DNA of 60,276 nucleotides from Candidatus Woesearchaeota archaeon (GTDB lineage: Archaea; Nanobdellota; Nanobdellia; Woesearchaeales; JABMPP01): NCBI GenBank assembly GCA_013202955.1, contig JABMPP010000101.1:1-60276 (forward strand), given 5' to 3'. Of the stretch, positions 19,119 to 47,677 are shown in pieces. The notes below the pieces were generated by a model that worked only from the letters and a program-made list of their open reading frames with translations, ran no database searches and had not been told where the DNA came from. Position 1 is the first letter of the stretch. Every line of letters begins with the position of its first letter. The position numbers were made by a program, and so were the translations under genes.

Positions 19119-19952
19119 CTATATAAATCCAAGAGCAAACCCAATTGTTATGTTCCTGAACTTATTCTCACCCTCATCATAATCATAAACAGAAAAAACA
19201 TCACCAGTTTTAACAGAAAAACTCACAAATCTCTCTTCAGTGCATTTATCATTTGGAATATTGGAGCTATTACCACATCCAACAACCTCCCACTCAACAC
19301 CATCTTGTTTATACTCTTGTATTTTTGTGTTTATACATCCCATAAACCCATCCACATCAAAACAACTCCAAATTAACTCAGTAGATTGTGTTTTTAGTTT
19401 ATCATAAATAGATAAATCATAATCCATCTCTGTTGTGAATGAAGGCTTTATCGAATATGTTATGTTGCTCTTGTTTAAAAAAATATTTCTTGTGGCAATT
19501 CCTGTTATTTTTGTTTTCCCAACAACAAAATCATAGTTGTTTAATGATATGTTGTATGGGGTTATCCTTAATTGTTCATCCAGGTTATACTCAAAAAATC
19601 CAATAAATGAGTTATAAACATCTGGGAAGCATTCATCTGTTGAGTTTTTCCATACTTTTACTCCCATATATTCACCACAACCTTGTTCATAAAAAAAACC
19701 GGAATTTTTTCCTAAATCATACACACTCTGTTTAGCAGCAAATTTTGAGGCTAGATCAACATACAATAATACTTTTTCACCTTGATTATAAATATTAAAA
19801 AGTTTGAATTGCCTTTCACCTATAACCAAATCATTCCCCTTTTCATCTCTAAACTTGGCTTTTTTTTCACTAACAACAATTAATCCAGAAATTAAGATAA
19901 CTATGCTTATGAGAACCAATCCAATACTAAATATATGTGCTTTTTTATTCAT
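19119..19952 (-). CDS. pilin-like/N-terminally anchored protein, last gene of giant operon
   Basis: MNKKAHIFSIGLVLISIVILISGLIVV. The start overlaps the upstream stop. Confidence 0.6.
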   Translation of the reverse strand: MNKKAHIFSIGLVLISIVILISGLIVVSEKKAKFRDEKGNDLVIGERQFKLFNIYNQGEKVLLYVDLASKFAAKQSVYDLGKNSGFFYEQGCGEYMGVKVWKNSTDECFPDVYNSFIGFFEYNLDEQLRITPYNISLNNYDFVVGKTKITGIATRNIFLNKSNITYSIKPSFTTEMDYDLSIYDKLKTQSTELIWSCFDVDGFMGCINTKIQEYKQDGVEWEVVGCGNSSNIPNDKCTEERFVSFSVKTGDVFSVYDYDEGENKFRNITIGFALGFI

Positions 19953-20539
19953 TTTGTCTGAATACCAGGCGTTCCTCTAAATTCAATAACCTTGAGATTT
20001 ACTTTAACCTTTTCTTCATAACCTATTGGAACAGGAATGAATAATTCACTTTCTATTAAAGAACCTTCATCACACATTCTATAATCTCTCATCTCTTCTA
20101 TCTCATTTGAGAATCCTTTTTTTTTGTAAGAAAATGTTTTTTCCTCTTCATCCTTCAAAATATTAAACTCAACCCCACAAAAAAACCCTCTTTGATTATC
20201 CCAAAGCATGCTCAGAATCTTTTTTGTTTTCTCCATTAATAATTTGTATGCTTCTGAGTCATCATCCTCAAGATTAGTAAAAACAACCAACTCACCAACA
20301 GTCATATTTTCTTTTATATTATCATTATTAATATCAATCTCAACAGGAGATCTTACAAAATTAATCAGTGTTGTTCTAACATTCATGTCACTTCCCTCAC
20401 TGCTGATTGTTTCTGTTATTCCCCCTTTCACAAACTGGAAAAGTATAGCAAATATAATTATAACAAACACCCATGCACCATATGCATAAAAATCAACTAA
20501 TATGCTTCCAACTGAACCTTTTTTTCCTTTCATTTTCAT
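19949..20539 (-). CDS. N-terminally anchored protein, operon member
   Basis: MKMKGKKGSVGSILVDFYAYGAWVFVIIIFAILF. There are 4-nt overlaps on both sides. Confidence 0.6.
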   Translation of the reverse strand: MKMKGKKGSVGSILVDFYAYGAWVFVIIIFAILFQFVKGGITETISSEGSDMNVRTTLINFVRSPVEIDINNDNIKENMTVGELVVFTNLEDDDSEAYKLLMEKTKKILSMLWDNQRGFFCGVEFNILKDEEEKTFSYKKKGFSNEIEEMRDYRMCDEGSLIESELFIPVPIGYEEKVKVNLKVIEFRGTPGIQTK

Positions 20540-46937: not shown

Positions 46938-47677
46938 TCTTTGATGTGTCTGCTACTGCCTTTCTTGCTTATATCTAAATAATATGTTCTGTTTGTTAGA
47001 TTGCTCTTTATCTTGTCCAAGAACCAACCAGGTACTGAGAGCTCAGATCTTAATAAATCAAAAGTATATCCTGCTCTGGAGTAAAGACTTGTTTCATTTA
47101 TCTTTTTCAAGTATTGAAAGCACTTTTCAAAATCTATTGGTTTTAGTTTAACTATTGCATCTTTAAGCTCATCAAACCCAAGAGTGTAGTTTATGTTTCT
47201 TAAACAATCCAGAATTGTTCTTTCCTTGTCGCTGATCTTAATAAGATTGTTGTTATAATTAATATCCTCAAACCCAAAAAAATGCTTTGTTTTTATAACA
47301 TTATAATTAACTTTTTTGTAGCCAACATTTGGAACCCTATTGTTTGAGCTAATAAACACTTTATTCATTCCTTTTTCTGTTGCGTTATATAACTCAAGAG
47401 CGCTGTGATGCGAAAGAAAACATTTATCCATGAAGTTATCCCCAATAAGATATTTGTCAGGAACAAAAGAATCATTATTGTCAGGGGTCTGCTCAAAAGG
47501 AATTATACAGTAAAGCCCTCTTTTAACCTTTTTGATATATTTTTTTTCAGCAAGACCTTTAACAGCATGAATCGCAGCCCTGTAATTCTTAAGAAACAGC
47601 TTTGCATCTTCTAGCACAAACACCTTTTTCGTGTAAAACTCCTTGTAAACTCGTTGTTCAGTCGGCGTTAAGGTCAT
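46913..47677 (-). CDS. AbiEi-like wHTH transcriptional regulator (COG5340-type), first gene of the operon
   Basis: TPTEQRVYKEF...VFVLEDAKLF...AAIHAVKGLAEKKYIKKVKRGLYCIIP...FLSHHSALELYN follows the AbiEi antitoxin N-domain pattern (RGLY, SHxSAL). GAGGT lies 8 nt upstream of the ATG. Confidence 0.6.
   Translation of the reverse strand: MTLTPTEQRVYKEFYTKKVFVLEDAKLFLKNYRAAIHAVKGLAEKKYIKKVKRGLYCIIPFEQTPDNNDSFVPDKYLIGDNFMDKCFLSHHSALELYNATEKGMNKVFISSNNRVPNVGYKKVNYNVIKTKHFFGFEDINYNNNLIKISDKERTILDCLRNINYTLGFDELKDAIVKLKPIDFEKCFQYLKKINETSLYSRAGYTFDLLRSELSVPGWFLDKIKSNLTNRTYYLDISKKGSSRHIKEWKLMVPL

Follow-up and report, generated by a model that had tools for sequence, protein, structure and literature searches.

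Among the described type IV filament (TFF) systems, those closest to the locus considered here include the Epd pili, or TFF 'system 1'. The EppA substrates of M. maripaludis have leaders of 5-13 residues ending in Gly, followed by Gln at +1 and Glu at +5 (PMC3875500), and system 1 is also present in DPANN archaea (preprint 10.64898/2026.04.22.720090). Archaellin-type genes are highly expressed in Woesearchaeota (PMC11606122), and nanoarchaeal ATPases are known whose pilins went unidentified (PMC4858521). Few groups of uncultured archaea are as abundant and diverse as the Woesearchaeota and their relatives. Wall-degrading enzymes of Woesearchaeota and Pacearchaeota were earlier taken as a sign of bacterial hosts or prey, in surveys that listed isolated murein-degrading genes together with a block of 51 functionally unassigned families specific to the lineage (PMC8204110, PMC9723730). 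Earlier work on these lineages had already noted murein hydrolases and large proteins of the lytic-transglycosylase type (PMC8204110, PMC9723730, PMC12352652). The present analysis concerns a stretch of 60,276 nucleotides (nt) from a Candidatus Woesearchaeota archaeon (assembly GCA_013202955.1, contig JABMPP010000101.1, positions 1 to 60,276, locus tags HQ529_*), called the window below. Its subject is a minus-strand array of 19 consecutive genes for pilin-like proteins, which lies directly behind the gene of a giant surface protein.

The array is a lineage-wide core feature rather than a one-off. This is based on the 80 best loci of 204 species-level genome matches to one of its proteins, W02, on which all synteny counts given here rest. 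The array proteins quite probably carry type IV pilin-like N-terminal modules. The preferred reading of the whole, on which we place about half of our confidence, is that the array is a TFF-derived apparatus of Woesearchaeota and Nanoarchaeota for bacteria-directed attachment and wall breaching, assembled by machinery encoded elsewhere.

Pilin-like N-termini and the conserved gene order

The listing and translation of open reading frames (ORFs) reproduced the locus as an earlier note on this DNA had described it, with 21 co-directional genes on the minus strand at 19119-47677. It consists of a 254-aa gene, a 5,589-aa gene and 19 ORFs with sizes of 47-397 aa. The claim of tight junctions at most boundaries was generous: with plausible starts, 12 of the 20 junctions overlap or leave at most 5 nt, and the remaining eight span 21-100 nt. 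It is plausible that the 21 genes form a single operon. The members of the array, numbered from the giant gene onward, are given below, with a slash at the end of each leader.

29710..30171, minus strand: W01, 153 aa, conserved core pilin-like gene 1, N-terminus MKKA/QVQTQ..., family in 53 loci
28646..29707, minus strand: W02, 353 aa, conserved core gene 2, N-terminus MKSKRG/AIEVQFNWIF..., FNWIF motif invariant
28131..28643, minus strand: W03, 170 aa, conserved core gene 3, N-terminus MRKKA/QIRMGE...
27512..28030, minus strand: W04, 172 aa, conserved core gene 4, N-terminus MIMKRG/QMELMG...
27195..27452, minus strand: W05, 85 aa, six-Cys mini-pilin, MKKA/QGISLNVIIIAAIALLVL, candidate major subunit
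26898..27173, minus strand: W06, 91 aa, six-Cys mini-pilin, MNTKRG/QGISINMLIVAALALVVL, paralogue of W05
26714..26857, minus strand: W07, 47 aa, helix-only mini-protein, ...NKKA/QTREAVPLMYMILG...
25749..26651, minus strand: W08, 300 aa, MNKKG/VTYETMR..., Gly-rich, zipper-like C-terminal segment, paralogue of W09
24902..25747, minus strand: W09, 281 aa, MKKRA/DISM..., Gly-rich, zipper-like C-terminal segment
24719..24877, minus strand: W10, 52 aa, helix-only mini-protein, MNKMGFNKKA/FWGMEF...
24261..24722, minus strand: W11, 153 aa, MKMIGNKG/AVGPKE...
23951..24238, minus strand: W12, 95 aa, Cys-rich mini-pilin, MKKKA/DLTINILIVAAIGLVVL
23733..23954, minus strand: W13, 73-80 aa, Cys-rich mini-pilin, MKKA/DMTIE...
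23311..23736, minus strand: W14, 141 aa, MMKMKKA/ASMLR..., Asp-rich, Cys-containing thrombospondin-3-like stretch (pattern only)
22112..23305, minus strand: W15, 397 aa, MKKFFKKG/IGVTDAGG...
21057..22070, minus strand: W16, 337 aa, ...SSKKG/EVNEE..., pilin-like N-terminal module and predicted N-acetylmuramoyl-L-alanine amidase (Amidase_3)
20536..21054, minus strand: W17, 172 aa, MKNKRA/MFTLN..., family in 29 loci
19949..20539, minus strand: W18, 196 aa, MKMKGKKG/SVGS...
19119..19952, minus strand: W19, 277 aa, MNKKA/HIFS...

The N-termini were compared by a class III-like rule, which describes a leader of 4-12 residues ending in [KR][GA] and, within 0-11 residues of it, a hydrophobic segment of about 19 residues; the start codon of each array ORF was the Met nearest the motif. 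All 19 array genes follow the rule, compared with 3/30 other genes of the window (Fisher one-sided p = 8e-11), and the hydrophobic segment of all 19 proteins has a Kyte-Doolittle mean of 1.9-3.5 over 19 residues. The rule also holds for 505 of the 602 ORFs of at least 60 aa in the co-directional runs of the related loci. In the family alignments, the W01 consensus is KK[A/S] followed by Gln at +1 in 96%. The W03 family has Gln at +1 in 100% and Glu at +6 in 98%, the W04 family Gln at +1 in 98% and Glu at +3 in 98%, and the W02 family Glu at +3 in 79%, together with the invariant FNWIF. In the mini-pilin family, the conserved residues are Gln (83%), Ser (93%) and Asn (96%). The -1 residue is G, A or S across the orthologue families, and conservation at +1 and of Glu is looser in W08-W19 than in the core families, which share leader length, +1 Gln and a nearby Glu with the EppA substrates (compared with PMC3875500).

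The class III pattern noticed earlier therefore holds in the sense that these N-termini have the character of class III signals rather than of generic anchors, as the -1 and +1 residues and the nearby Glu are conserved across the orthologues of about 80 species. Profile-profile comparison (hhalign) of W03, W04 and the mini-pilins aligns only the leader and helix (residues ~1-39, probability 74-83%, E-value ~1e-5), and the heads of W02 and W03 are unrelated. One N-terminal module common to families with variable heads is the pattern of pilins. AlphaFold models are in keeping with it: W02 (predicted local distance difference test, pLDDT, 94) is modelled with a helix at residues 4-60 followed by a beta domain and a helical bundle, and W03 (pLDDT 84.5) with a helix at residues 3-58 and six strands. 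The predicted architecture of both is an N-terminal helix of about 55 residues and a beta head, as is typical of pilins.

A different explanation of the same N-termini is that the proteins are uncleaved signal-anchor (type II) membrane proteins, i.e., tethered ectoproteins unrelated to type IV filaments, with basic N-termini that follow the positive-inside rule. Such proteins need neither the peptidase nor the motor, of which none was seen around the window or in the related loci, and they fit with pilin family models that match none of the array proteins and with heads that match no solved pilin. However, the near-invariant Gln, the small residue before it and the 98% Glu would be left unexplained in unrelated families from about 80 species. 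Like that of pilins, the modelled helix reaches into the head as one unbroken stretch of about 55 residues, and the near-helix-only proteins of 47-52 aa (W07 and W10) would make poor sense as anchored ectoproteins. The signal-anchor explanation is considered improbable on this evidence, and the pilin-like module is retained.

The gene order around these modules is conserved. It often starts with genes of about 850 aa and about 400 aa from a pilin-like family, here named family 6, which are followed by one giant or two large genes. The next four are W01 (~160 aa), W02 (~350 aa), W03 (~165 aa) and W04 (~165 aa), and the order ends with one to four mini-pilins of ~90 aa and about ten more pilin-like genes. 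The synteny that the earlier note had proposed to look for in DPANN relatives is thus kept across the 80 loci, and the arrangement, which it had called unusual and did not know from characterised archaeal loci, is real but belongs to the core of the lineage and is no oddity of this bin. W02 has 153 word-based homologues, all lacking Pfam domains, and its profile search reached 2,179 clusters at 50% identity; relatives occur in 204 species-level genomes. Most of the 80 loci carry Woesearchaeota, Nanoarchaeota or Nanoarchaeia labels. Third-party annotation (TPA) assemblies titled 'uncultured Methanosarcinales archaeon' contribute about 30, and Aminicenantes and Dehalococcoidales bins contribute two; these latter labels are probably generic or mis-binned, since the loci have a Woesearchaeota-like gene content. 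RadA and RPA genes lie just downstream of the array and are archaeal markers that fit the source, as do two presumably intron-containing tRNA genes and the G+C content of 31-35%. The RPA gene is downstream in 11 of the related loci as well, and this conserved neighbour argues for vertical inheritance.

Several smaller labels of the array were followed through the families. The Cys-rich mini-pilins are confirmed by six Cys in 76 of the 88 family members. The Ca-binding repeat and Gly-zipper labels stand as sequence patterns, the latter in 33/55 family members, and are not matched by Pfam. The position of W07 is taken in related loci by ORFs of ~50 aa.

Hydrolase cargo and the giant protein

The peptidoglycan amidase reported in the array was confirmed. 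W16 matches Amidase_3 (PF01520) with 49.3 bits against a cut-off of 27, over profile positions 2-173 of 174, and this is the sole accepted Pfam or NCBIfam match among the 19 array proteins. The motifs GHGG, SMH and LLELG are readable in W16, and we take them to be the metal-binding and catalytic motifs of the active site. In a Pfam scan of 126 distal pilin-like proteins from related loci, VanY was found in nine, Peptidase_M15 in seven, SLT in four, Amidase_3 in three and Lysozyme_like in two, with one each of M23, M15_3, Amidase_2 and 3D. The N-terminal 140 aa of W19 are homologous to a family that carries SLT, VanY/M15, M23 or 3D domains elsewhere. Judged by these domain assignments, the same slot of the cluster has recruited peptidoglycan hydrolase domains of at least six types. 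In the literature found, neither the pilin-type N-termini of such hydrolases nor this cluster is described.

Because the recurring enzymatic cargo is made of peptidoglycan hydrolases, we infer that bacterial cells are the target of the apparatus. The earlier idea was that an episymbiotic archaeon contacts its host through this structure, and the cargo moves that idea toward bacteria and away from an archaeal host. Self-directed wall remodelling as the main role of the hydrolases was judged improbable, as neither the window nor the loci showed genes for murein synthesis, and also because archaeal peptidoglycan hydrolases are found mostly outside the pseudomurein-making clades (PMC12352652).

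The largest product of the locus is the following.

30168..46937, minus strand: giant surface protein, 5,589 aa, with a Sec-type signal and a Cys-rich N-terminal region

Its domains include four copies of CarboxypepD_reg and the Ig-like repeats Big_13 and Glucodextran_B. A transmembrane helix at residue 5387 is followed by a 184-aa cytoplasmic tail, which contains 33% Lys/Arg and three copies of D[IV][VF]DEL; a related tail motif is present in 37 of 53 anchored giant homologues. The giant is predicted to be anchored in the membrane of the archaeon itself, rather than on a pilus tip, because it starts with a Sec-type signal and ends in a membrane anchor and a cytoplasmic tail of its own. The view that the apparatus displays the giant is thus not supported.

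Further observations were made on the giant homologues, e.g., those at 4596-9479 of locus L031 and 3477-9482 of locus L038. A conserved GCC(S/T)NPGAG follows the signal peptide in many of them, and many have a Lys-rich cytoplasmic tail with a (K)EDVFxxLKxI motif. Some genomes encode the giant in two pieces, a secreted one of ~2,000 aa and an anchored one of ~1,000 aa; the sublineage of the window has a fused, enlarged form of 5,589-7,350 aa.

An anchored giant also bears on a second explanation, in which the signals are cleaved and the products form a bindosome-like, non-filamentous envelope complex with short membrane-proximal assemblies or pseudopili. The complex would make up the core cell envelope of these archaea, the giant would be a surface layer (S-layer)-like or sheath component, and tethered ectoenzymes, including the peptidoglycan hydrolases, would scavenge wall debris. 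The C-terminal transmembrane anchor and conserved tail of the giant are like those of archaeal S-layer proteins, and archaeal type IV pilus (T4P) loci are known to encode Cys-rich, S-layer-like proteins with a C-terminal anchor (PMC4858521). The cluster is near-universal in the lineage and stands beside housekeeping genes such as RPA, as a core envelope feature would, no motor is linked to it, and W03 has a faint NCBIfam match to the bindosome protein BasB, which is not significant (E-value 0.36). On the other hand, the multi-copy ~90-aa mini-pilins with their strongly conserved N-terminal helix resemble shaft subunits, and the conserved four-gene pilin-like block resembles a minor-pilin initiation set. 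A size of 5,589 aa is far above that of known S-layer proteins, and the bindosome, too, requires an ATPase and platform pair. An envelope complex is therefore regarded as unlikely, although it is the alternative to be taken most seriously, and the attachment and wall-breaching apparatus remains the preferred reading.

Motor search and the proposed apparatus

In the attachment and wall-breaching reading, about 20 proteins would be made with class III signals of the Epd/EppA type, with a basic leader of 4-12 aa, a small -1 residue and often Gln at +1. The leaders would be removed by a prepilin peptidase encoded elsewhere, and an assembly ATPase and a platform protein, also encoded elsewhere, would pull the N-terminal helices out of the membrane and join them into a polymer. 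The four conserved genes W01-W04, next after the giant, would provide an initiation or tip complex, and the multi-copy, ~90-aa, six-Cys mini-pilins would form the shaft. The larger pilin-like proteins would be 'modular pilins' with functional heads, which across the lineage are repeatedly predicted peptidoglycan hydrolases, i.e., amidases, lytic transglycosylases, M15/VanY and M23 peptidases. The presumably co-transcribed giant Ig-repeat protein would be a long adhesin that stays in the membrane of the archaeon, coupled to the cell interior by its conserved cytoplasmic tail. The apparatus and the giant together would hold the archaeon to a bacterium and open the bacterial wall locally. Cleavage, polymerisation into filaments and the roles of individual proteins are steps that we infer.

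Several results weigh against this reading. The first concerns the motor. The search combined a Walker-A regular expression, a screen for multiple transmembrane segments with GxGDxK, and Pfam scans of P-loop ORFs of at least 250 aa and of ORFs with multiple transmembrane segments. It covered 68.8 kb of DNA, made up of the window and a further 8.5 kb of the source contig containing housekeeping genes only, and revealed neither a T2SSE/FlaI-type ATPase nor a TadC/FlaJ platform nor an A24 peptidase there. The absence of motor and peptidase from view, as first reported for the locus, is thus confirmed in the longer stretch, and the same three components were not found within +-10 kb of any of the 80 related loci. 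The second concerns the signals: Ser is common at -1 (38-45%) in three families, and most array N-termini would presumably fail the strict FlaFind pattern. The third is that the giant, having its own membrane anchor, need not belong to any filament.

The library searches add to these points. None of the 19 array proteins was called a pilin by Pfam (including PF04021) or NCBIfam. Foldseek searches of the PDB with the W02 and W03 models returned no solved pilin (best E-values 0.015 and 0.37, TM score below 0.3), and sequence and profile searches of the PDB gave nothing significant, the only PilA match having an E-value of 3.2. The Foldseek matches of the two models, of the formyltransferase and ribosomal-protein kind, were set aside as noise, and sub-threshold matches to beta-defensin, OadG, BasB (E-value 0.36) and TadE/G (E-value 0.091) were discarded as evidence. 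The expectation of pilin-like folds, raised with the first description of the array, thus came out divided: a long helix and a beta head are predicted, and the heads match no solved pilin. The hidden Markov model check proposed at the same time, with PF04021 and TIGRFAM-type models, gave no pilin match in the 19 proteins, and PF04021 also failed its positive control. This control is a protein elsewhere in the window.

1871..2494, minus strand: 207-aa (probably 180-aa) protein with a textbook class III-like N-terminus, MSNKKS/QAALEFLMTYGWAILVV, with Gln at +1 and Glu at +5, unlinked to the array

The Pfam negative carries little weight because the scan also misses this canonical-looking 207-aa pilin (KKS/QAALEFL). 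With it, the genome encodes a second, canonical-looking pilin-type N-terminus.

The motor screens raised only candidates such as H+-PPase, SecY, a presenilin-type signal-peptide peptidase (SPP), a MinD-like Fe-S ATPase, MCM and ABC proteins, all of which were rejected. The SPP was observed in two closely related loci, L062 (13800-14762, minus strand) and L068 (13738-14700, minus strand), as a protein with eight transmembrane segments (PF06550, E-value 6e-12). In both, the array ends after the mini-pilins and the SPP is the next gene. It is a GxGD aspartyl protease of a non-A24 family, and its position next to the array in 2/80 loci is probably coincidental.

The search for secretion components also concerns a type-II-secretion-like pseudopilus that would export the giant and the hydrolases, as was proposed for the giant-gene loci of Omnitrophota. 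There, the giant genes are preceded by loci that resemble a type II secretion system (T2SS) or T4P and contain many small class III signal genes (bioRxiv 10.1101/2023.11.21.568195), and a giant, pilin-like genes and wall degradation form a theme common to both lineages. Archaea of this kind, however, lack the outer membrane that a piston would have to cross, and no GspD/E/F homologues were found. The giant has a Sec-type signal and an anchor of its own, and the hydrolases carry a pilin-type N-terminus instead of a secretion signal. A pseudopilus of this type is very improbable.

A bolder form of the attachment and wall-breaching reading can be put forward tentatively and is rather unlikely to hold in full. 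In this form, Woesearchaeota and Pacearchaeota would owe to the array an 'enzymatic pilus', or grappling organelle, that defines their lineage. On a type-IV-filament scaffold of new pilin families, it would unite murein-hydrolase fusions with the action of a giant membrane-anchored adhesin and serve as a machine for cross-domain parasitism or predation, by which the archaea attach to bacterial cells and breach them. Such a machine would possibly be genetically uncoupled from its motor or use a shared one.

Neighbouring features and comparison with described systems

The region upstream of the giant gene contains four features.

46913..47677, minus strand: AbiEi-family winged-helix protein, 254 aa, stop overlapping the start of the giant gene (TAATG)
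47678..48372, no strand: AT-rich intergenic region, 695 bp, with 3-5 direct copies of a ~23-nt motif, TACTTATCTYAATATATATGTAA (plus strand)
48373..48969, plus strand (divergent): single-pass membrane protein, 198 aa, with a Cys-rich ectodomain
48970..53559, minus strand: family 6 pilin-like protein, 1,529 aa, leader MKRG/QITAFVIIGIVILG... (QITAFVIIG)

The 1,529-aa protein is homologous to the ~400-aa and ~850-aa family 6 proteins whose genes immediately precede that of the giant in about 30 related loci. Its N-terminal TadE/G-like match is weak (E-value 0.091); the N-termini of the ~400-aa subfamily read K[SGA]/Q[IV]T. The conserved module takes in this gene and does not begin at 47677, where the operon was first drawn to start. 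In the sublineage of the window, the module is broken by the 198-aa divergent gene, the 695-bp spacer and the AbiEi gene.

The AbiEi-like regulator named in the earlier note is upheld by a full-length PADLOC match to AbiEi (residues 10-253, E-value 5.8e-50). The protein itself has no direct match in Pfam or NCBIfam, and PF13338 is present in some of its homologues. No AbiEii partner adjoins it, the neighbours being the giant downstream and, upstream, the 198-aa membrane protein, which has no PADLOC match. Two relatives also have AbiEi next to a giant (7,350 aa and 5,685 aa), and the other 80 loci contain no homologue; for these reasons the protein is a sublineage-specific regulator and no core part of the module. 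It is best read as a stand-alone transcription regulator of the AbiEi type. The motif copies of the spacer lie 61-214 nt apart, and the spacer could contain the promoter or operator of the AbiEi-giant operon. Its repeats are possibly operators on which the AbiEi-type regulator acts, or else TATA-like promoters in several copies. A mobile element or defence island, an idea suggested by AbiEi, was rejected in view of the uniform G+C across the window (31-35%), the conserved RPA neighbour, the lack of AbiEii and the presence of the cluster in 204 species.

The 198-aa membrane protein has no Pfam match either, and the relative L086 has a 192-aa gene at its position, between family 6 and AbiEi. Its product and that of 4992-5402 (minus strand) were observed to share a motif in their N-terminal, cytoplasmic part, ..YI.K.L..G....I...LL..G....I..A.., ahead of a single transmembrane helix and an ectodomain rich in Cys. 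This small family has no database matches.

Other observations concern the rest of the window. A secreted protein of 1,662 aa at 53595-58583 (minus strand) has fn3/purple-acid-phosphatase-N repeats and a BNR domain; in the copy on JGI contig Ga0335114_11498581 it is called as two genes (656 and 938 aa), which suggests a frameshift or an assembly difference between the two assemblies. At 4121-5011 (minus strand), a 296-aa secreted protein ends in a Peptidase_S74 domain (E-value 3e-16). This domain is the intramolecular chaperone of phage tail-spikes and endosialidases and is unusual in a cellular archaeal context, and the protein may be a surface protein that forms fibres, or the remnant of a virus. 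A 527-aa protein at 5845-7428 (plus strand), with the domains of both the small and the large DNA primase subunits, is apparently a fusion of PriS and PriL. Two tRNA genes of 100-109 nt, at 12866-12974 (minus strand) and 14965-15064 (plus strand), reach 51-53 bits with Rfam, were missed by ARAGORN in bacterial mode and presumably contain introns; one of them overlaps the 5' end of an ORF for a GCD14-type tRNA methyltransferase.

On sequence and on fold, the array belongs to no named pilin family, and it lacks the locus-encoded motor that defines the described TFF systems. Its individual parts can nevertheless be set beside several of them. The 254-aa protein corresponds to the full-length AbiEi of the AbiE type IV toxin-antitoxin system. 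Unlike in AbiE, the AbiEii nucleotidyltransferase is missing, and AbiEi is translationally coupled to the giant in three related genomes.

The second comparison is with the minor-pilin and PilY1 tip complexes of bacteria (FimU-PilVWXE-PilY1; GspH-K). In both cases, four differently sized pilin-like genes adjoin the gene of a large adhesin, and the largest member, here W02 with 353 aa, has an extra helical domain. No homology was detected between them, and the adhesin of the array has its own membrane anchor. Furthermore, +1 is Gln or Ala in the array and Phe in the bacterial sets, and Glu is at +3 or +6 instead of +5.

The giant-gene loci of Omnitrophota (10.1101/2023.11.21.568195) share with the array a giant, small class III genes and wall-degrading domains, in an ultrasmall suspected predator. 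They differ in being bacterial, in having GspD/E/F and in giants with many transmembrane segments and SecA-like domains, and their proteins are not homologous to those of the array as far as tested.

Another close relation is to the Epd pili, or TFF system 1, of Methanococcus, Thermococcales and some DPANN archaea (PMC3875500, PMC4858521, 10.64898/2026.04.22.720090). Common to both are numerous pilin-like genes that share a transcription unit (a plausible one in the array) and encode short leaders of the EppA-substrate type, with Gln at +1 and a Glu close by. The major pilin is very small (here a candidate), large adhesin-like proteins are part of the locus, and more stand-alone pilin genes occur elsewhere in the genome. 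EppA, a locus ATPase, two platform genes and pilins of the DUF361/arCOG06620 type were not found in the locus, which gave no DUF361 or PF04021 match, and in contrast to Epd there is no ATPase, platform or EppA in or near the cluster in the 80 loci. The heads have no detectable similarity in sequence or fold to DUF361 or Epd pilins and include peptidoglycan hydrolases, the pilin-like genes number about 20 as compared with ~5-11, and the giant is C-terminally anchored and has no DUF2341/PilY-like domain. If the attachment and wall-breaching reading is true, the orphan TFF ATPases that were reported from nanoarchaea would gain candidate pilins in the array.

The grafting of a pilin-type N-terminal module onto a functional domain is shared with the modular pilins PilB and PilC of Streptococcus sanguinis (PMC8179133), and the use of such a module with a functional domain within an assembly is shared with the Sulfolobus bindosome (PMC4858521). 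Unlike these, the array is predicted to graft at least six families of murein hydrolases, in an archaeon without murein. The hydrolases are now placed in a defined conserved unit of about 20 genes with a recognisable assembly logic, and W02, with its invariant FNWIF, is a marker family for finding the apparatus in metagenomes. If the proposal is true, murein hydrolases would join the known cargo of modular pilins.

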